64,000 nucleotides of DNA from an uncultured Gammaproteobacteria bacterium (GTDB lineage: Bacteria; Patescibacteriota; Patescibacteriia; Magasanikbacterales; UBA922): contig CAZQHU010000003.1 in assembly GCA_964592785.1 (NCBI GenBank), positions 3,901 through 67,900 of the forward strand, read 5' to 3'. Positions 21,916 through 35,925 of the stretch are shown in pieces. The notes beneath the pieces were generated by a model that saw nothing but the letters and a program-made list of their open reading frames with translations, ran no database searches and had not been told where the DNA came from. Numbering within the stretch: position 1 is the first letter of the stretch; every line of letters begins with the position of its first letter. Both the position numbers and the translations under genes were made by a program.

Positions 21916-22908
21916 TTATCTTATACCCACCAGTTCCCGTACTTCTTCCATGGTTTCCGAAGCAATAATTTTGGCTTTTTCTTTACCTCGGAGCAAAATT
22001 TTTGCCAATTTATCAAAATCATCAGAAAGCAACTGATCCCGTCGCATTCGAAACTCAGCAAAATGATCCGCGATTGCTTCTGCCAATTCATTTTTCAAAT
22101 CTCCATAAAGAATAGTACCGGCTTTTTCTGCTCTTACAAACTTCTCATAAGTTTCCTGACTGCCAAAATTCTTAAGCAACAATAAGAGATTAGCAACACC
22201 CGGAGCCTTTTCTCCACCTTCGGTAGCTGTTACCGCTCTTTTTATTTTCTTCAAAATAATTTCCGGCGCATCGCCAATATTGATCACGTGATTGTCTCCC
22301 AGACTCTTACTCATCTTCTTCTCTGGTTCCAGAAGACTCATAACTTTGGGAATATCAGTAAGCAAGGCTTTGGCTTCAGGAAAATAATTTTTTTCAAAGC
22401 GATTATTAAACCAACGTGCTATATCACGAGTCAGCTCCACATGTTGAACTTGATCTTGGCCCACTGGCACAGTATCACCATGATAAAGTAAAATATCCGC
22501 GGCCTGAAGAATCGGATAAGTAAGCAAACCGGCATTAATATTTTTTTCTTGCCTAACTGACTTGTCTTTGAATTGTGTCATGCGATAAAGCTCGCTGATC
22601 GGCGTTACACAATTCAAAATCCAGGCCAGATCAGTGTGGGAAGTAATATCTGATTGAATAAAAAAAGTGGTTTTATCTGGATCAATGCCAGCAGCCAATA
22701 ACTCTGCTGCCAAACGCATAATTTGATGTCTTCTGTCTTCAGATTTCATATTGCCGGTAAGAGAATGTAAATCGGCAATAAAAATATACATTTCATATTT
22801 GCCCGAATTCTGTAAATCCACCCAGTTTTTCACAGCACCCAAATAATTACCTACATGAAGACTACCAGTAGGTTGAATACCAGAAACGATTACTTGTTTT
22901 TTAGGCAT
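21916..22908 (-). CDS. trpS: Tryptophanyl-tRNA synthetase
   Basis: Class I HIGH-like motif (TGSLHVGN) and KMSKS. Confidence 0.9.
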   Translation of the reverse strand: MPKKQVIVSGIQPTGSLHVGNYLGAVKNWVDLQNSGKYEMYIFIADLHSLTGNMKSEDRRHQIMRLAAELLAAGIDPDKTTFFIQSDITSHTDLAWILNCVTPISELYRMTQFKDKSVRQEKNINAGLLTYPILQAADILLYHGDTVPVGQDQVQHVELTRDIARWFNNRFEKNYFPEAKALLTDIPKVMSLLEPEKKMSKSLGDNHVINIGDAPEIILKKIKRAVTATEGGEKAPGVANLLLLLKNFGSQETYEKFVRAEKAGTILYGDLKNELAEAIADHFAEFRMRRDQLLSDDFDKLAKILLRGKEKAKIIASETMEEVRELVGIR

Positions 22909-22956
22909 AAAATTGTTATTTATTTACACCTATATTTTACCCAATTTAGCAAAAAA

Positions 22957-24090
22957 TCACAAGTTTATTCTCTCTGCCACATAATCCACGTCTTTGTCGC
23001 CTCGACCAGAAAGATTAACAATGATGATTTTACTCTTATCCAAAATTGGCGCCAATTTTATGGCCTCGGCCAAAGCATGTGAACTTTCCAAAGCCGGAAT
23101 AATACCTTCTGTCCTTGATAATTCTTGAAAAGCGTTTAGAGCTTCTGTATCATTAGCCGTCTTATACTCTACCCTACCCAAATCTTTTAAATATGAATGC
23201 TCTGGACCAACCCCCGGATAATCAAGACCTGAAGCAAGAGAATGCACAGGCGCTGGTTCACCAGATTCATCTTGAAGTAAATAAGTCACCATCCCATGCA
23301 AAATGCCCGGCTTGCCCAAAGTCAGCGTGGCTGCATGTTCTCCTAGTTTAAAACTCTTGCCGGCTGGCTCTACACCAATCATCTTTACTGTGGAATCATC
23401 CAAAAATTCATTAAAAAGTCCAATCGCATTGGAACCACCACCCACACAGGCAATCAAATAATCTGGTAATCTTTTTTCTTGTGTCAAAATTTGTTCCCGA
23501 GCTTCTCGTCCAACTACCGACTGGAAATCTCGCACCATTCCTGGATAAGGATGAGGCCCAACGACCGAACCAATGCCAAAAAAAGTATTTTGATAATCCT
23601 GCATATAAGCACCAAAAGCACTATCCACCGCATCTTTCAAACAACGCCCACCAGAATTTACTTCCACTACCTTGGCGCCAAGAAGTCTCATGCGAATAAC
23701 ATTGGGATGTTGTTTGGCAACATCAATCGCCCCCATATGAATCTCACACTCCAAACCAACAATGGCCGCCGCCGTGGCCAAAGCCACACCATGCTGGCCA
23801 GCACCGGTTTCTGCCAAGAGTTTTTTCTTGCCCAAACGTTTGGCCAAGAGCGCCTCACCCAAAGTGTGATTGATTTTATGTGCCCCCGTATGATTTAAAT
23901 CTTCGCGCTTCAAATAAATTTTGGCTCCGCCCAATTTAGCTGTCAGATTTTTGGCAAAATAAAGTGGCGAAGGACGACCCACATAATTTTTTAACAAATC
24001 TTCGTATTCATGAATAAATTCCGGATCATTTTTTGCTTTTTCATATTCACACGCTACTTCGTCCAAGGCTGGTTTTAATTGTGGTGGCAC
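22957..24090 (-). CDS. trpB: Tryptophan synthase beta chain (stand-alone TrpB)
   Basis: PLP-dependent TrpB motifs ([17 protein letters not shown]). GTG start. Confidence 0.85.
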
Positions 24091-24194
24091 GAGTTGTCCA
24101 CCATACTCTCCAAAATAACCAGAACTACTTGGTAAAGATTTAAATAAATTAAATTTTTTTTTTTTAATTTTTTTAAATTTAAATTTAATAAATT

Positions 24195-24370
24195 ATTTTT
24201 TTTTTTCTGGGCCCCCCCCCGCAACTGCGGGGCGCTCCACTAACCAGGACTCGACCCTAACAGCCGAGCAATGTCTTACCCTCCCGCCTCATCTGCTCTA
24301 GAACTTTGAGAAACATCGCGTAGCTGTAAGGACGTGGATCCATGGTCATGCCTCCCCATAAAGAACGAAC
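24195..24370. ncRNA. GC-rich (about 60%) structured element of unknown class between yerC and trpB-trpS
   Basis: Flanked by an extreme AT-rich, low-complexity stretch. It matched neither tmRNA, RNase P, SRP, T-box nor tRNA signatures when checked by eye. Confidence 0.3.
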
Positions 24371-24398
24371 AAAAAAACGTCCGGCTTAGGGCCGGACG
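24371..24398 (-). terminator. Intrinsic terminator of yerC
   Basis: Minus strand reads CGTCCGGCcctaaGCCGGACG followed by TTTTTTT. Confidence 0.6.
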
Positions 24399-24495
24399 AT
24401 GTTCACCAAAACACCATCAAACTAGACCCTTCGCCAGAGAAGATATTGCCACCAAGCAAATTGTCTAGTTTGACTATTTTTCATATAAATTCTCG

Positions 24496-24789
24496 TCATT
24501 CCCGCGTCGGCGGAAATCTTTTATTTTTTAAAATCTTATAAAAACCACCTTTTTTATCTAACATCTCTCGCGCTCCTCGCTCTACTTTGGAAATACTCAC
24601 CGCGAGCTTCTTGGCGACTTCACGTTGAGTCAAACCTTGATGTAGGAGTTTCACAATCTGCAAGCGCATGACCACATCTTTTATTTCCGCCGGAGTAAGT
24701 AAATCCGCCAAAAAATCTTCCATCAATTTTTCATCTTTAATACCTACTAAAACTTTTAATAATTCTTTTTTGGCTTGAACAAAACCCAT
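24496..24789 (-). CDS. yerC: TrpR-like YerC/YecD family DNA-binding protein
   Basis: 97-aa protein with the conserved C-terminal HTH (LTQREVAKKLAVSISKVERG). Confidence 0.75.
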   Translation of the reverse strand: MGFVQAKKELLKVLVGIKDEKLMEDFLADLLTPAEIKDVVMRLQIVKLLHQGLTQREVAKKLAVSISKVERGAREMLDKKGGFYKILKNKRFPPTRE

Positions 24790-24867
24790 ACATTATTACT
24801 TTATAAACTTTTTAACTTTACAAACTTTAAACTACCCCGTACTGCTGTACCAGTACAAAAGTATTAT

Positions 24868-24902
24868 ATAAAATAAAAAACCAGCCGTCAATCGACGGCT
24901 GG
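24868..24902 (-). terminator. Intrinsic terminator (or attenuator) at the 3' end of the GC-rich leader
   Basis: Minus strand reads CCAGCCGTCgattGACGGCTGG followed by TTTTTTATTTTAT. Confidence 0.6.
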
Positions 24903-24904
24903 GG

Positions 24905-25150
24905 ATAAAATTGAGCCTATACGAATTTTTTTGGGGAGGTGGACTGCTGCGCCAGTCCACCCCAAGTCTTGCGCTGCGTTCCCCTACTCGCAGAGGGGCG
25001 GTGGAGACGAAGATTGTCTGGGTGTTTATCCCTAAATACCTTCACTTTTCTTCGTCTACCCCGACGGGCCGGTAGGTTGGGACGTCGTCGCCCTACAACA
25101 CCACCACGCAGCGGCTGGAACGGCTGGCCATAGAGCACCTCCTGTTGGCC
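24905..25150 (-). ncRNA. GC-rich (about 60%) structured leader RNA upstream of yerC; riboswitch- or attenuator-like, class unknown
   Basis: Own promoter, AGGAGG SD plus a 12-codon ORF (MASRSSRCVVVL), mutually exclusive helices sharing one GGGG run, an anti-SD CACCTCC, and a terminator about 80 nt before yerC. Confidence 0.45.
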
Positions 25151-25159
25151 ATTACAAAA

Positions 25160-25188
25160 ATATTACTAAATAACCAATAAAAAAGCAA
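25160..25188 (-). promoter_or_regulatory. Promoter TTGCTT-17-TAATAT driving the leader and yerC
   Basis: Minus strand reads aaacTTGCTTttttattggttatttagTAATATttttgta. Confidence 0.5.
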
Positions 25189-25334
25189 GTTTATAAAAAA
25201 TTTTATAAATATAAATAAAGGCTAAACACCACCCTTGAAAAAGATAATTACTTATGTTAAATTTAGTTTAGACAAACACACTCGGAATGGTCCGGGTGGT
25301 GCAACTATGTCTTGCTTCGAAAAGGAGGAACACG

Positions 25335-25601
25335 ATGTACATGGGCATGACGTTCACATTTCCAAAGGAAGGTGTAGAGGATATGTTGACGGCCTTGCGG
25401 ACGTTACGGGGAGTCACCCAGGTGATGGTGCAGGAACCGTACATACCTGTACACCCAACGATCTTTGTCCTTGTCAAGGTGGAAAAAGGGCAAGAATCTG
25501 AAATGCAACGCTATTTCTCAGCTCTTCTCTCGGCCACATGTGGCCGAGATATCCACGACCTGCGTTTCTTCAAAGTCCATGTCTACCCCAATCAGGGGTG
25601 A
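25335..25601 (+). CDS. GC-rich small ORF of 88 aa (cassette c)
   Basis: AAGGAGG lies 6 nt upstream of ATG 25335. The region is about 50% GC. It is followed by the conserved 45-nt 3' module and a terminator. Confidence 0.5.
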   Translation: MYMGMTFTFPKEGVEDMLTALRTLRGVTQVMVQEPYIPVHPTIFVLVKVEKGQESEMQRYFSALLSATCGRDIHDLRFFKVHVYPNQG

Positions 25602-25677
25602 CCTATCTTCGACTGGGTACACCAATCGCACTTTTCCAACTTCGTTGGAGCACCTGAACCTGGAGGATTCAGGGTGA

Positions 25678-25745
25678 CTCAAGTGTTTATAAGTATTTTG
25701 TAAATAGTTGAGAATAAAAAATCCCGATTATATCGGGATTTTACT
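25678..25745 (+). repeat. Conserved cassette 3' module, copy A (caagtgtttataagtattttgtaaatagttgagaataaaaaat plus terminator hairpin)
   Basis: Near-identical to 35240-35306 and 35848-35925. The hairpin sequences differ but the structure is conserved (cccgattatatcggg). Confidence 0.8.
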
Positions 25746-25758
25746 TTATAAACTTAGT

Positions 25759-27546
25759 TTACACCTCAATCACCACTGGGAGAACCATCGGACGCTTTTC
25801 AGTTTTGCTAAATAAAAATTGTCCAACTTTATCGCGAATATTATTTTTTATCTGGTTGGTATCAGCCCAGCTCATAGGATCAGACTCGATCACCATCTTC
25901 TTTACTTTGTGACGAAGATCTTCTATTAGTTGTTTATTATCTTTCAAGAAAATAAAACCTCGAGAAATAATATCTGGATTTTGAATCAGTTTGCCGGTCT
26001 TACTATCTATAGTAGCAATCACCACCACCATACCGTCTTCAGCCAGAACTTGACGATCGCGAAGCACTACATTTTGAGTATCAGAAACTCCCAAACCATC
26101 TACAAACACATAGTTGGATGGCACTTTTTTATCCAGCATCCGCGCGCCAAACTCACCCACTTCGATGATTGAACCATTGTCTGGCACAAAAATCTTATTG
26201 GCATCAAAACCATTTCGAATTGCCAAATTTCTCGCTTCTTTGAGAAAATAGTGATTGGCATAAACGGGGATAAAATAGGTAGGCCGAATTTGTTTGATCA
26301 TTTCCACAATATCTTCGCGGGTAGCATGACCAGAAACATGCACGTCCATGATCTCACCGTGGATCACATTGTCACACTGACGATAAATATTGTCTTTGAG
26401 ACGTTGAATACTACGCTCATTACCAGGAATAATCGAAGAAGAAAAAATCACGGTATCATTTTTGCGCAAACGAATCTGCTTGTGTTCACCAGTAACAATC
26501 CGCACCAAAACTGCGTTTTCTTCACCTTGAGCGCCAGTACAGATAACCACGATTTGCTTGTCAGGATAGTCATCCACTTTTTTGATATCAATTAACAAAC
26601 CTTTGGGTATATTGATATAGCCAAGTTCTTTGGCAATCTCAATATTCATCTTCATAGAGTAGCCATCGAGCGCCACTTTCTTACCCAGTTTGTCTGCCGC
26701 TTCCAAAACCCATTTGATTCTTTCTATTTGCGAAGAAAAAGTGCCAATGATCACCCGCCCAGGAGCACTGTTCAAAATATTTTGTAAATTTTTGTACATT
26801 TCTTCATAGCTACCAGTATGACGATCATTTAGGGAACCCAAACTCTCAAGCATGAGCACTGTGGGTTTATTTAATTTTTGTAATTGAGAATAATTCAAAG
26901 TCGGCTGACCATTCTTGTCACGTTCCATTGTCCAATCGCCCGGATGAATCACTGTGCCCGAAGGAGTTTCAATGATCACTCCTACTGCATCCATGATCGA
27001 ATGTTCAACTTGAAAAAATTTAATTGTAAATTTACCTAGTTGGATACGATCGCCCACGCTTTTGATAAGAATACTCTTCAAACTCTTGGACATGCCTTTT
27101 TTATAATCTTCCAGCTTATGCTTGATAAGCGCCAAAGTCAGGTTACGGCCTACTACCAGAGGATTACCCAACTTTTCCAGTAAAATAGGGGCCGCCCCAA
27201 TGTGATCCAGATGACCATGAGAAAAAACTACTCCGCGAATATTTTTTTCTTTACCTTGTAAATATTTAGTATTAGGAATGATGTAATCAATCCCGGGCAT
27301 GTCTTCCTCAGGAAATTGAATTCCCATGTCCAAAATAACTATATCATTCTCATATTCAAACATCGTCATATTACGCCCCACTTCTTCACAACCACCAAGG
27401 GGGATGATTCTCAAAACTCCTGGGGCACTACCCTTTTCTTCTGGCGTTAAACGTTTGAATGTTGAAAAACCCGGCTTCTTGTGAGGGTGCTTACTACCGC
27501 CAAAACGCCGCTGGCGTCGTGGCTGTGTTTTTTCTTGTGCTATCAT
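25759..27546 (-). CDS. rnj: Ribonuclease J (beta-CASP metallo-beta-lactamase RNase)
   Basis: HGHLDHIG motif in an MBL/beta-CASP/RMMBL architecture, with a basic N-terminal tail. Confidence 0.9.
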   Translation of the reverse strand: MIAQEKTQPRRQRRFGGSKHPHKKPGFSTFKRLTPEEKGSAPGVLRIIPLGGCEEVGRNMTMFEYENDIVILDMGIQFPEEDMPGIDYIIPNTKYLQGKEKNIRGVVFSHGHLDHIGAAPILLEKLGNPLVVGRNLTLALIKHKLEDYKKGMSKSLKSILIKSVGDRIQLGKFTIKFFQVEHSIMDAVGVIIETPSGTVIHPGDWTMERDKNGQPTLNYSQLQKLNKPTVLMLESLGSLNDRHTGSYEEMYKNLQNILNSAPGRVIIGTFSSQIERIKWVLEAADKLGKKVALDGYSMKMNIEIAKELGYINIPKGLLIDIKKVDDYPDKQIVVICTGAQGEENAVLVRIVTGEHKQIRLRKNDTVIFSSSIIPGNERSIQRLKDNIYRQCDNVIHGEIMDVHVSGHATREDIVEMIKQIRPTYFIPVYANHYFLKEARNLAIRNGFDANKIFVPDNGSIIEVGEFGARMLDKKVPSNYVFVDGLGVSDTQNVVLRDRQVLAEDGMVVVIATIDSKTGKLIQNPDIISRGFIFLKDNKQLIEDLRHKVKKMVIESDPMSWADTNQIKNNIRDKVGQFLFSKTEKRPMVLPVVIEV

Positions 27547-27590
27547 AAAATATTTTATTTTTATTTAAATTAAAAAGAAGAAAAAATTTG

Positions 27591-27674
27591 TACCGCGAGA
27601 GAGACTTGAACTCTCATGGCCTTGCGGCCGCTGACACCTGAAGCCAGTGCGTCTACCAATTTCGCCATCGCGGC
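27591..27674 (-). tRNA. tRNA-Leu (anticodon CAG), type II with a long variable arm
   Basis: Minus strand: GCCGCGA-TG-GCGAAATTGGTAGACGC-A-CTGGC-TTCAGGT-GTCAG-CGGCCGCAAGGCCAT-GAGAG-TTCAAGT-CTCTC-TCGCGGT-A. The acceptor, D, anticodon and T stems all pair. The anticodon loop TTCAGGT gives CAG. Confidence 0.85.
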
Positions 27675-33099: not shown

Positions 33100-34006
33100 T
33101 CAGCGTGAAATTGAGTTAATTAAAGCATTTGTGTTGAAAAAACCACGCGAATTTTTTATTGCCCACCCGGAGTACCAAGTTAGCAAGTTAGCAAGTGAAC
33201 AAGTGAATAAGTTGATTAAAAAACGTACTCGTGGTATTCCACTCGCTTATTTACTTGGCAAAAAAGAATTTTTTGGGTTGAATTTTACAGTAAATAAAAA
33301 TGTTTTGATTCCTCGCCCAGAGACAGAACTGATGGTAGAAAAAGTTTTACAAAAAATCAAGAATTCAAAAAACCAAGAAATTATTTTAATTGATATTGGA
33401 ACTGGTACTGGATGTATTCCCATTTCAATCATAAAAACAATTAACCCCACCCTACCCTCCCCTACAAGGGGAGGGAAAGGGAGAGGTTTCGCCGTCTTTG
33501 CCACGGACATCTCCCAACCAGCTTTGTCTGTCGCCAAAAAAAACGCCAAAAAACATAATGTAAAAATAAAATTCCTTCACGGCAACTTGCTTGAACCATT
33601 TCTCTGTCATCCTGAATTTATTTCAGGATCTTTCCCAAAATCAAACCTGCTAAAAAGTATATCTGGAGAAAAGATGCTGAAACAAGTTCAGCATGACATC
33701 ATCATCACCGCCAACCTCCCCTATCTTACACCTCAACAACTTAAACAAGAACCCTCAATAAAACACGAACCTCACCTCGCCCTCGTCGCTGGCAAAGATG
33801 GACTAAAATACTACCGAGAACTTCTTAAACAAATTAATATATTGACTTCGGACTACAGACTACAGACTACAGTTTTTTGCGAAATAAATCCGGAACAAAC
33901 AAAAAATATAAAACTCCTTACTAAAAAAATTCTTCCCCAAGCCAAAATAACCCTCCACCAAGATCTGGCTGGAAAAAATAGAGTGGTGGAGATAATTCCC
34001 CTCTAG
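33086..34006 (+). CDS. prmC: Release factor glutamine N5-methyltransferase PrmC/HemK; contains two in-frame palindromic-element insertions
   Basis: SAM motif IDIGTGTG and NLPY (a variant of NPPY). Classic prfA...prmC linkage. Confidence 0.85.
   Translation: MSKIDQREIELIKAFVLKKPREFFIAHPEYQVSKLASEQVNKLIKKRTRGIPLAYLLGKKEFFGLNFTVNKNVLIPRPETELMVEKVLQKIKNSKNQEIILIDIGTGTGCIPISIIKTINPTLPSPTRGGKGRGFAVFATDISQPALSVAKKNAKKHNVKIKFLHGNLLEPFLCHPEFISGSFPKSNLLKSISGEKMLKQVQHDIIITANLPYLTPQQLKQEPSIKHEPHLALVAGKDGLKYYRELLKQINILTSDYRLQTTVFCEINPEQTKNIKLLTKKILPQAKITLHQDLAGKNRVVEIIPL
33606..33698. repeat. Two-hairpin MITE-like element, copy 2; 93 nt, inserted in frame in prmC
   Basis: It encodes LCHPEFISGSFPKSNLLKSISGEKMLKQVQHD between the SAM-binding region and the NLPY motif. 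Confidence 0.75.
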
Positions 34007-34150
34007 AGAGGGGTGCCCGCTCAAGCGGGTGGGGTGTGTTACAATAGCAAAAATTAAAAACAACGGTCACACACCCCGTCTGCCTCCCGCCTGCCATGCC
34101 TGGCACTGGCGGGCAGGGCGAAGGCATACACCCCTCTCCAGAGGGGATCG
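34001..34150. mobile_element. Cargo-less TIR pair (MITE) of the DUF559-element family
   Basis: CCCCTCTAGAGAGGGGTG-hairpin-GGGGTGTGTTAC, an 18-nt spacer, then CGGTCACACACCCC-long hairpin-CACCCCTCTCCAGAGGGG. Confidence 0.6.
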
Positions 34151-34164
34151 CCTCTTGACAAACC

Positions 34165-34193
34165 CATAAAAATAAGCTATAATGCCCTGTTCT
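34165..34193 (+). promoter_or_regulatory. Consensus promoter TTGACA-17-TATAAT of cassette d
   Basis: TTGACAaacccataaaaataagcTATAAT. Confidence 0.65.
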
Positions 34194-34393
34194 TTGAAAA
34201 TTTTCAAACGGCTTATAAATTAGCCAATTTTTGACTAATGTCTAGGCCGTTTGAGGCTTAGGGAACAGAAAAACTACTGTTGAAGGAGTGGCCTGTATAG
34301 GGGGCAACTACCGAGACCTTTTTGAAGGTCATTACAGCAAGTTTCTGTTTTCCCGACTTCCTGTTCCGCCCGAGGCGGACAAGAGGAGGTACC

Positions 34394-35161
34394 ATGCCCA
34401 GTTTCTCCAACAAGTTCCTGAAAGTGGAGAGCGACCGCTCTCCGGTGGGACAGCGGACCCGTCTGCTGGTCCTCTGGTCATACTTCATGGCCATTCTCCT
34501 GGGTGGCCTGTGGCTGATGCCCAGCTCGATGGCAGTGGCGAACCTGATCCTGATGGGTTTGAACACCCTCATCTTCGCCCGCTGGGTGTCCAAGAATGGG
34601 GTGGATTACTACCCCAAGAAGGAAAACAGAAAATACCCCCCGTTTCTTCCGAGATGGGGAGAGGGTACGCGTCGGTACTACTTCGTACCGGCGATCATGA
34701 CCAGCACGATCTGGTCGGCAGTGTTTTTCGGCTGGAACACCTGGTTCAGCGAAAACTTGTTGTGGATTGTTTTGGGTGTTATGTGCATCCTTCTCGCCAT
34801 CTTTCTGGTCCCCTACCTGTGGGGTAAGAGGGCATCCAGGAAAAGCAAGAGATTCATGGCCCAGCAAGACGAGGAGAGACGAAAGCAGAAGGAGATCGAC
34901 GAGCTGATTCAAGCGGCGATGGGAAGGAAGGAACTCGAGATTTACGAGAGGGAGAAAGAGTTCCTTCGTGACCTGGCAGTAATCATCGCCAACTTCCACT
35001 ACGAAAAGGGAAGAAAGCCCTCGAAGAGGGACGCCGAACTCCGGCAGAAACTCGAGGCGATCCTCGAGTACTTCGTCGGCCCGAGCGAGGCCGAGGCCAT
35101 GGTCGCCGAGGAGCTCTACCGCCTCACTCGTGAGGCGAAGAAGGCCACGGTGGCCACTTAG
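34394..35161 (+). CDS. GC-rich (about 57%) membrane protein of 255 aa: about 4 TM helices plus a charged coiled-coil C-terminus (cassette d)
   Basis: GAGGAGG lies 5 nt upstream of ATG 34394. The overlapping track ORFs 34258-34999 on other frames are GC artefacts. gttcgttcttt follows the stop. Confidence 0.6.
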   Translation: MPSFSNKFLKVESDRSPVGQRTRLLVLWSYFMAILLGGLWLMPSSMAVANLILMGLNTLIFARWVSKNGVDYYPKKENRKYPPFLPRWGEGTRRYYFVPAIMTSTIWSAVFFGWNTWFSENLLWIVLGVMCILLAIFLVPYLWGKRASRKSKRFMAQQDEERRKQKEIDELIQAAMGRKELEIYEREKEFLRDLAVIIANFHYEKGRKPSKRDAELRQKLEAILEYFVGPSEAEAMVAEELYRLTREAKKATVAT

Positions 35162-35180
35162 ACACTGTTCGTTCTTTAGA

Positions 35181-35239: not shown

Positions 35240-35306
35240 TCAAGTGTTTGTAAAATATTTTGTAAATAGTTGAAAATAAAAAATCCGCTGATAAGGCGGT
35301 TTTTTT
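35240..35306 (+). repeat. Conserved cassette 3' module, copy B, plus terminator
   Basis: tcaagtgtttgtaaaatattttgtaaatagttgaaaataaaaaat-CCGCTGataaGGCGG-ttttttt. Confidence 0.8.
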
Positions 35307-35408: not shown

Positions 35409-35747
35409 ATGGCAAATAATTATCACTTGTCTGGTCCTTTTTCCTTCGGTATCCTATCTCCAAAGAACAAGGAGGAAAAGTACAGTATTTTCTTCCTGTC
35501 AATTCTTAGGGGCGACGAAGTGCACCGAGCCTATCTCTGCTACTCCAAGCAACAAGTTCGAAACGTGTTTGACCAGTTCAGACCTTGTATTGCACCAGAC
35601 GAACTCAAGATAGCGGAAGATTTCGTAACCCATAACCAGCACGTACCCGAATTCTCGAACCACAAGATGAGGGAATACAACGGACGAGAGGCCGAAGTGT
35701 TCACCGCGCTCATGTCCACTGGGCACTACGCAAGCATTGCCAACTGA
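35409..35747 (+). CDS. GC-rich small protein of 112 aa (cassette e)
   Basis: AGGAGG lies 8 nt upstream of the ATG. A tttcgttctttag motif and a hairpin follow the stop. Confidence 0.55.
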   Translation: MANNYHLSGPFSFGILSPKNKEEKYSIFFLSILRGDEVHRAYLCYSKQQVRNVFDQFRPCIAPDELKIAEDFVTHNQHVPEFSNHKMREYNGREAEVFTALMSTGHYASIAN

Positions 35748-35792
35748 CCATCCGCCCGAGTCAGGGCAAACCAAATTGTTTCGTTCTTTAGC

Positions 35793-35847: not shown

Positions 35848-35925
35848 ATCAAATGTTTGTAAAAATTATTTTGTAAATAGTTGAGAATAAAAAATCACTT
35901 AATAATCTAAGTGATTTTTTATTTT
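35848..35925 (+). repeat. Conserved cassette 3' module, copy C, plus terminator
   Basis: atcaaatgtttgtaaaaattattttgtaaatagttgagaataaaaaat-CACTTaataatctAAGTG-tttttt. Confidence 0.8.

Follow-up and report, generated by a model that had tools for sequence, protein, structure and literature searches.

What governs a tryptophan synthase beta gene (trpB) that has no trpA beside it, and what is the element, rich in guanine plus cytosine (GC), that lies just ahead of it? The question is raised by a 64-kb stretch of Patescibacteria DNA (64,000 nucleotides [nt] of contig CAZQHU010000003.1, here called the window), in which trpS, trpB and a gene of the TrpR family form one run on the minus strand. This run, reported in the original prediction, was borne out by TIGR00233, TIGR00263 and PF01371, and the GC-rich stretch between the repressor gene and trpB is present as described (54% GC across 24195-24370, 58% across 24212-24360; whole window, 38.9%). 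We consider it likely from the sequence that the locus is a single tryptophan (Trp)-responsive operon with one promoter, a TrpR-type operator, a leader attenuator and an inserted small open reading frame (ORF). The idea that the two GC-rich elements of this region are regulatory RNAs did not survive the analysis: the one at 24195-24370 is read here as a small coding ORF followed by a hairpin, and the one at 24905-25150 belongs to a strain-variable islet.

The three genes are closely spaced (Table 1), with a gap of 48 nt between trpB and trpS in which no terminator was scored. P0001, a full-length relative of the window TrpB, scored 580 bits against TIGR00263, and, among named sequences, those closest to TrpB and to the repressor carry the annotation Candidatus Magasanikbacteria or Patescibacteria. 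Pfam-verified TrpA, TrpC, TrpD and TrpF queries, taken from conventional trp operons found with TrpB and mostly from outside the candidate phyla radiation (CPR), gave no tblastn match anywhere in the window, which agrees with the earlier statement that no trpA or other trp gene is in view. TrpA was likewise not found within 3 to 6 kb of trpB at nine CPR loci. Because some Patescibacteria carry trpA (trpA and trpB are both reported in a minority of their genomes; PMC8672522), trpA may be present elsewhere in the source genome.

Between the trpR-like gene and the GC-rich element lie 125 nt that hold more than a terminator alone: they comprise a leader peptide and an attenuator. The leader ORF encodes MKNSQTRQFAWWQYLLWRRV and contains a tandem pair of Trp codons (24449-24454) and a third Trp codon (24434-24436); in a longer in-frame form (MTRIY-MKNS...), the ATG at 24499 overlaps the trpR stop as ATGA. 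The leader is followed by a GC hairpin with a T-run, and the GC-rich element begins just after this T-run, the regulatory RNA lying 10 nt upstream of it. Folding was constrained by keeping ribosome-covered nucleotides unpaired, with an assumed footprint (nt 1-48 masked for a stalled ribosome and nt 1-75 for a ribosome at the stop codon). When a stall at the tandem UGG codons was simulated, the segment UGGCGAAGGGUC paired with the terminator loop and arms (-25.1 kcal/mol) and the terminator was absent; with the ribosome at the leader stop codon, the terminator alone formed. The same switch between stall and stop folds was reproduced at the window, L086 and L134 (loci are given as L numbers). 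A Trp-codon-rich ORF, a terminator, a mutually exclusive antiterminator and the stall/stop geometry of trpL are all present, and this region is very likely a leader-peptide transcription attenuator of the trpL type.

The same design was seen in relatives. Regions upstream of trpB were fetched from other Patescibacteria, including L085 to L090, L005, L134 and L137, and every one contained a short ORF rich in Trp codons and, after it, a hairpin with a U-tract (leader peptides are listed in Table 1). Leaders with WW or WxW (W being Trp) and a terminator precede trpB or a TrpB2-type gene in about 10 other Patescibacteria lineages; in L134 and L137, the repressor and leader device stands before a TrpB2-type gene (TIGR01415, 644 bits for L134). 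In attenuators of the ACUGC/GCAGU type, segments 1 and 3 share one sequence and segments 2 and 4 another, the classical four-segment arrangement. A five-sequence alignment of this type showed 95% pairing and four compensated pairs for helices 1:2 and 3:4, and 90% pairing and three compensated pairs for the 2:3 antiterminator, while slid registers reached at most 52%. RNAalifold, given six sequences, predicted the 2:3 helix independently, with five compensated pairs. The pattern of helix covariation appears consistent, though the sample is small.

How the leader is translated seems to depend on the lineage. In six lineages that have no repressor gene, a TTGACA-17-(-10) promoter is followed, after exactly 6 nt, by the leader ATG (six of six), and this fixed distance implies that the leader mRNA is leaderless. 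In four repressor-bearing lineages, the leader begins 2 to 22 nt past the repressor stop codon or overlaps it, and no ribosome-binding site precedes it; we infer, as the simplest reading, that the leader is translated through re-initiation by ribosomes terminating on trpR. A further arrangement was noticed on a Gracilibacteria contig (L006, 2611-2940), where a TrpR-like protein ends in ...RWWKDFKSW just ahead of a terminator. There GAGCUGGUG can pair with the 5' arm of the terminator as a plausible antiterminator, and the repressor tail may double as the attenuator leader. A WW tail of this kind was found in none of 26 other TrpR homologues, which leaves L006 as a single case.

Upstream of the leader, the promoter of the trpR-like gene (11 of 12 positions matched) is followed by a palindrome, TGTACTGGTACAGCAGTACG, which matches the gammaproteobacterial TrpR motif TGTAcTnGTnnACnAgTACA (PMC9413887) at 14 of the 16 specified positions. 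The window holds no second match to the motif; the core GTACTNGTAC is expected 0.01 times, and an operator occupies the same position in five lineages (window, L085, L134, L137 and, in variant form, L006). In viral contigs, the operator pattern gave two matches, both coincidental and within phage coding sequences. A TrpR-type operator with autoregulation is, on these sequence matches, a probable reading. Two features of the same region were noted in passing. The -35 of trpR lies within the terminator hairpin of the preceding gene, a layout common to the window, L134 and L137. The trpR 5' untranslated region (24790-24835) contains, between operator and start codon, two direct copies of AAAGTTTRTAAAGT, each nearly palindromic and partly conserved in L085.

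The repressor itself scored 67.5 bits against PF01371 (cut-off 27). With the NCBIfam models it scored 57 bits for TrpR (TIGR01321, cut-off 67.25) and 29.6 bits for YerC/YecD (TIGR02531, cut-off 42.2), and the best matches among sequences of solved structures were the HisR-like 3G1C and 3KOR. BLASTP against Escherichia coli TrpR gave 33% identity over 46 amino acids (aa) (E 5e-6), covering the ligand and helix-turn-helix region. In this alignment to what we take to be the E. coli TrpR sequence and its list of Trp-contacting residues, T44-P45, R54, I57-V58 and R84-G85 are identical and T81 and S88 differ. Of the earlier label, a TrpR-like YerC/YecD protein, the TrpR family assignment stands and the YerC part is not supported. 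'TrpR-like' is the better label because the TrpR model outscores the YerC/YecD model and because the prediction for Bacillus subtilis YerC is a histidine repressor (HisR) that recognizes another operator, cacTTTAnnnnnnTAAAgtg (PMC9413887).

What, then, is the GC-rich element? Its core is quite likely a translated small ORF. The product is MDPRPYSYAMFLKVLEQMRREGKTLLGC, of 28 aa (30 aa if the ATG at 24349 is used), with GGAGG 7 nt upstream of the ORF. The element is carried by two lineages only, that of the window and L002 and that of L085, whose TrpB is 90% identical to that of the window. Between the window and L085, 28 of 87 nt of the ORF differ, with 8, 5 and 15 differences at the three codon positions, and the changes amount to 10 synonymous and 7 nonsynonymous codons. 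Amino acid identity is 75% despite 32% nucleotide divergence, and none of 100,000 trials of a random-substitution simulation kept as much. The ribosome-binding site and the stop position are conserved in the relatives. HMMER found no match to the 28-aa peptide among 1.84 billion representative proteins; Pfam, PHROGs and NCBIfam gave none either, and a back-translated DNA pattern had no match in viral contigs. Pattern matches in Joint Genome Institute (JGI) metagenomes, 43 in number, were rejected as an unrelated HD-domain gene or random hits, including the look-alike L094.

The ORF is followed by a GC hairpin (z = -8.5 and -6.3) whose stem is invariant between L002 and L085 and which is unique in the window; its sequence had one match in viral contigs, an unrelated phage terminator. 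No further copies of the GC-rich element were found inside the window. About nine related lineages that keep leader regulation do not have the element, and the corresponding slot is either empty (L134 and L137) or filled by a conserved, unrelated small ORF that carries one Trp codon. This second small ORF sits between the attenuator terminator and trpB (L086, 3907-3966; L089, 2884-2943; L090, 2916-2966; L087, 3913-3996; L005, about 1913). Examples of its product include MKSLYHNYSRFSWQKINTG, MTKYFFYNRCTEYWRK and MNHFIHKNHCTEFWHN, and within the core shared by L090 and L087 the differences are synonymous. An antiterminator between the small ORF of the window and its hairpin was considered and dropped, since the candidate segment is not conserved in L085.

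In the regulation that we propose, a single promoter would read the trpR-like repressor gene, the leader peptide, the attenuator, the 28-codon ORF, the hairpin, trpB and trpS. When Trp is plentiful, the TrpR-family protein would bind the operator just downstream of the -10 and repress its own operon. The leader start overlaps or adjoins the trpR stop, and ribosomes finishing trpR would re-initiate there. At low levels of charged tRNA-Trp, a ribosome would stall at the tandem UGG codons and leave UGGCGAAGGGUC free to pair with the terminator loop and arms, and RNA polymerase would continue into the small ORF, trpB and trpS. With tRNA-Trp charged, a ribosome at the leader stop would cover UGGCGAAGGGUC, the terminator would form, and transcription would end at 24371-24377. 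The GC-rich element, downstream of the attenuator switch, would have no part in switching.

This account has to be set against other explanations of the element. As a cis-regulatory RNA controlling trpB (a riboswitch, a T-box-like RNA or a protein-binding leader), it would account for GC richness in an AT-rich genome and for a place in the trpB 5' region, and the whole intergenic region does fold better than its shuffles (z = -4.2). That score is, however, owed to the attenuator hairpins and the terminal hairpin: the ORF region, which forms the element's body, is no more stably folded than shuffled sequence (z = -0.9 and +1.2), none of 41 predicted consensus pairs is compensated, and substitutions track codon positions. 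The element is also missing from lineages that have the leader and trpB. Rfam searches of the whole window, and of 24050-25800 at E <= 10, returned nothing credible, and the element had no match even at E = 10. The signatures that the original prediction had looked for and not seen (T-box, transfer-messenger RNA, RNase P and signal recognition particle RNA) gave no Rfam or ARAGORN match, with none for the T-box family RF00230 at E <= 10. We regard a cis-regulatory RNA as highly improbable. The hairpin could instead be a terminator without a U-tract that ends a trpR-leader-small ORF transcript, trpB and trpS being read from their own, possibly leaderless, promoter in the spacer. The very stable, perfectly conserved stem and the AT-rich sequence downstream would suit such a role, as would the leaderless-type promoters of relatives, in all six of which exactly 6 nt separate the -10 and the ATG. 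But there is no T-run, unlike in the three clearest intergenic terminators nearby, and the hairpin was not scored as a terminator; no promoter-like site was found in the 45-nt spacer between hairpin and trpB in L002 or L085; and in relatives the attenuator directly precedes trpB, so that severing the two would waste the attenuator. We therefore think this arrangement unlikely. Because the hairpin is not a scored terminator and no promoter was found before trpB, trpB and trpS seem to rely on read-through that starts at the promoter of the repressor gene. That the hairpin serves RNA stability or processing, and not termination, is proposed only tentatively, as the least certain step. Decay of a mobile or foreign insertion into a functionless remnant, with a fortuitous ORF, might explain an element confined to two lineages, with no homologue among the 1.84 billion proteins or in the DNA scans and with an edge motif common to other GC-rich orphan cassettes. 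The amino acid identity kept at this nucleotide divergence, the 10 synonymous codon changes, the outcome of the simulation and the conserved ribosome-binding site and stop position all speak for a translated ORF, and a remnant seems to us quite unlikely.

A separate question concerns the poly-A/T sequence said to flank the element. An AT-rich stretch is indeed present (24100-24194, 14.7% GC), though only on the trpB side, and 24140-24225 is largely a probable error. Four near-identical contigs from other sequencing runs (L001 to L004; 99.1 to 99.7% identical over up to 10.7 kb) differ from the window at about 20 of the 85 nt in 24140-24225, compared with 0 to 3 differences per 100 nt elsewhere. 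They agree among themselves wherever they overlap; L001 reaches only about 24217 and covers the patch in part. The relatives' version has the perfect 14-bp hairpin, a 45-nt AT-rich spacer and then ATG-CAA-ACA-GAA, the N terminus of TrpB. The same positions in the window are runs of G and A: the 3' arm of the hairpin is degraded to a G-run, and 24166-24168 reads ATT where the relatives have the trpB ATG. Because the window has no ATG, GTG or TTG upstream of the conserved GYFGEYGG motif, the deposited annotation starts at an internal GTG (24090; P0003, 377 aa) and truncates the conserved N terminus. Since the substitutions run toward homopolymers and the break in three of the four related assemblies falls exactly at the hairpin, we think it quite likely, from the comparison of assemblies, that the poly-A/T flank is mostly an assembly error; the sequence expected across 24100-24260 would then be GCGGGGCGCTCCACTGAAAAATAAATTT...ATATGCAAACAG. 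Were the A/T and G runs real, trpB would be freshly inactivated or would start at a noncanonical ATT. The deposited record does contain the same truncated TrpB, and the frame is maintained, every difference being a substitution. Against this stand the mutual agreement of the related assemblies where they cover the patch, the confinement of the differences to 85 nt beside the hairpin, their uniform direction toward homopolymers and the intact remainder of trpB, and we consider real runs improbable.

Several points weigh against the operon as we read it. Every regulatory step is drawn from sequence and folding. With a stalled ribosome, the minimum-energy fold of L085 retains the terminator, and the antiterminator would have to act kinetically there, as in E. 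coli. The window-type attenuator is known in two diverged versions only (window/L002 and L085), and covariation for this type is weak as a result. No ribosome-binding site precedes the leader, and its coupling to trpR is an assumption. The Rfam Trp_leader model (RF00513) has no match at 24371-24499, even at E <= 10, and its only weak matches fall on unrelated terminators. The repressor is below both NCBIfam cut-offs, and its recognition helix reads SKVE versus ATIT in E. coli TrpR. If the letters of the window are correct, trpB has no canonical start codon.

Table 1. Features of the trpR-like-trpB-trpS locus, GC-rich orphan genes of the window and leader peptides of related loci
Feature	Position	Strand	Remarks
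trpS	21916-22908	minus	TIGR00233, 315 bits
trpB, canonical TrpB1 type	22957-24168 (annotated ORF 22957-24090)	minus	Frame conserved up to 24168
Patch disagreeing with related assemblies	24140-24225	none	Substitutions toward A/T and G runs
GC hairpin	24209-24240	minus	In relatives, perfect 14-bp stem GTGGAGCGCCCCGC-AGTT-GCGGGGCGCTCCAC; no U-tract
Small ORF with ribosome-binding site	24257-24355	minus	GGAGG 24351-24355, ATG 24343, ORF 24257-24343; 28 codons; GC-rich orphan gene with GGAGG
12-mer GTTCGTTCTTTA	24359-24370	minus	5' edge of the GC-rich element
Attenuator RNA	24371-24436	minus	Antiterminator/terminator pair
Terminator CGTCCGGCCCTAAGCCGGACG, 8-bp GC hairpin	24378-24398; T7 run 24371-24377	minus	From terminator scoring
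Antiterminator 5' strand UGGCGAAGGGUC	24425-24436	minus	Competes for the terminator in constrained folds
Trp leader ORF, 20 codons, MKNSQTRQFAWWQYLLWRRV	24422-24484, ATG at 24484	minus	Starts directly after the trpR stop
TrpR-family repressor gene, 97 aa (earlier 'yerC')	24496-24789	minus	PF01371, 1e-18
TrpR-type operator TGTACTGGTACAGCAGTACG	24838-24857	minus	Begins 6 nt after the -10
trpR promoter TTGACG-17-TATAAT	-35 24886-24891, -10 24863-24868	minus	11/12 positions match
Terminator of the upstream unit, 9 bp and T-run	24881-24902	minus	Loop and 3' arm include the trpR -35
88-aa orphan gene	25338-25601	plus	GC-rich orphan gene with GGAGG
255-aa orphan gene	34394-35161		GC-rich orphan gene with GGAGG
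112-aa orphan gene	35409-35747		GC-rich orphan gene with GGAGG
L085 leader			MKHSQTRQFAWWQYFLWRRV
L086 leader			MNKIHLQLNAWWTAPNCGQ
L087 leader			MTQTNLQLTSWWTAL
L088 leader			MNKLALQLNAWWTALTFRQ
L089 leader			MNKINLQLNSWWTALPNEQ
L090 leader			MIKLLQQLNWWTAPALGQ
L137 leader			MKGNGNLLNWWNCWRS
L134 leader			MYRNMCILSRVWRWASRD
L005 leader			MKFIKTNWQWSYTHSGESSF

Other GC-rich stretches of the window show some kinship with the element. The 12-mer GTTCGTTCTTTA at its 5' edge has further plus-strand copies, an exact one at 35167-35178 and one with a single mismatch at 35779-35790, which follow closely on two other GC-rich orphan genes; among 141 loci, it occurs only in those carrying the GC-rich element. 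At just 13 places in the window does GGAGG precede a start codon that opens an ORF of at least 25 codons, and 4 of these are the GC-rich orphan genes of Table 1. These sequence features are suggestive of the element being one of a set of foreign-looking cassettes and a lineage-specific insertion. We give little weight to two further ideas. In the one, the 28-aa protein would be made only upon attenuator read-through, the sister ORF in the same slot possibly likewise, and either would be a starvation-induced microprotein acting on TrpB1 or TrpRS, for example by replacing activation by TrpA. In the other, the element would belong to an undescribed family of GC-rich microcassettes (strong ribosome-binding site, orphan ORF, hairpin and GTTCGTTCTTTA edge) that insert into operons.

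A conserved motif of about 50 nt, AATCAAGTGTTTGTAAAATATTTTGTAAATAGTTGAGAATAAAAAATC, was noted at 25679-25724, 35240-35286 and 35849-35896 on the plus strand, each copy followed by a different terminator hairpin. The copies lie downstream of the GC-rich orphan genes of 88, 255 and 112 aa, each of which has a strong GGAGG, and for two of these three genes a GC hairpin and the 12-mer GTTCGTTCTTTA are present as well. The orphan proteins associated with AATCAAGTGTTTGTAAAATATTTTGTAAATAGTTGAGAATAAAAAATC belong to no Pfam family, and the motif was not found in viral contigs. Cassette ends resembling integron attC sites were considered and dropped, as the core sites do not fit.

The second GC-rich stretch (24905-25150) forms, together with the 88-aa orphan gene, a strain-variable islet (24905-25700). 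In L001 another gene stands in its place, and L085, L134 and L137 lack it. Because the islet is missing from these four loci, the stretch is, judged by this comparison, not part of the conserved trp control region. The only database match of the 88-aa gene is itself. The GC-rich unit of the islet, of about 250 nt, lies on the minus strand and ends in a terminator; it represents a small RNA or else an arginine-rich ORF of 73 codons, whose start is GTG in the window and ATG in L002. Elsewhere, 33940-34200 (minus strand) is noncoding with several GC-rich hairpins, and the Rfam anti-hemB model scored 31.9 bits there (threshold, 49.5). ARAGORN reported only a tRNA-Leu in the window (27590-27674). 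In L002, a strain 99% identical, a 123-nt insertion (2396-2518; window position about 27651) splits in its D-arm the tRNA-Leu(CAG) gene that is intact in the window. The insertion carries a different, complete tRNA-Leu(CAG) and is flanked by short inverted repeats.

Control of the trp operon in E. coli is summarized in PMC7755916, and the TrpR motif used here is from PMC9413887. The window resembles that system in having a TrpR-family repressor and a palindromic operator of 20 bp that overlaps the promoter and is almost identical in sequence. As in E. coli trpL, a short leader with tandem Trp codons is followed by alternative antiterminator and terminator hairpins and a U-tract. Unlike in E. 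coli, the regulated operon opens with the repressor gene itself; the leader, which lacks a ribosome-binding site, begins at the repressor stop, or is leaderless in relatives that have no TrpR; and the regulated cargo is trpB and trpS only, not trpEDCBA, with no detectable RF00513 similarity. The gene order of trpR, an intergenic regulatory region and trpB is also that of Chlamydia trachomatis trpR-IGR-trpBA (IGR, intergenic region). Chlamydia trachomatis is host dependent, has no upstream pathway, salvages indole and cotranscribes trpR with trpB, features that the organism of the window would share; the annotated TrpL of Chlamydia is long, has no tandem Trp codons and is unvalidated, and attenuation has been attributed to YtgR (PMC7755916). 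Chlamydia keeps trpA, whereas the window has a canonical WW leader and terminator, no adjacent trpA and an attached trpS. With the YerC/YecD (HisR) branch, the repressor has the fold family PF01371 in common; HisR controls histidine genes through cacTTTAnnnnnnTAAAgtg (PMC9413887). In contrast, the operator here is of the TrpR type and its neighbors are trp genes.

Stand-alone TrpB2 'indole rescue' enzymes were reportedly described by Hettwer and Sterner in 2002. The proposal made here is similar in that a lone beta subunit would make Trp from free indole, and it differs in that the window enzyme is a canonical TrpB1, which normally partners TrpA. Actinobacteria have leaderless attenuators in which a short ORF senses an amino acid. 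The six relatives that have no TrpR resemble these, their leader ATG lying exactly 6 nt past the -10; they differ in clade and in the amino acid, and the leader in the window would instead be coupled to trpR.

The mechanism is known from the E. coli pair of TrpR and trpL; new are the clade, the reduced cargo of a lone canonical trpB with trpS, and the mode of leader translation. No published account of leader or operator control of trpB in CPR bacteria was found in the literature searched. CPR bacteria are thought to be minimally regulated and to depend on neighbors for amino acids. Here, a lineage with almost no biosynthesis would keep two-layer Trp control of the E. coli type around one salvage enzyme and the ligase that charges tRNA-Trp. 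The operon looks dedicated to tryptophan supply and charging, and it has two independent Trp-responsive devices, the attenuator with its WW leader and the operator of the TrpR type. These two devices fit a lone TrpB that would make Trp from indole for TrpRS, and they support the salvage-to-charging logic suggested earlier for the pairing of TrpB with TrpS. For those who use the deposited record, its trpB annotation is truncated through a probable sequence error. The relatives make up a natural series, from a leaderless leader through a leader coupled to the repressor stop to, possibly, a repressor tail that itself carries the Trp codons, and the WW leader together with the operator offers a sequence-level marker for Trp-responsive genes in uncultivated genomes. 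Indole salvage in these organisms would thus be under regulation and presumably of importance to them.

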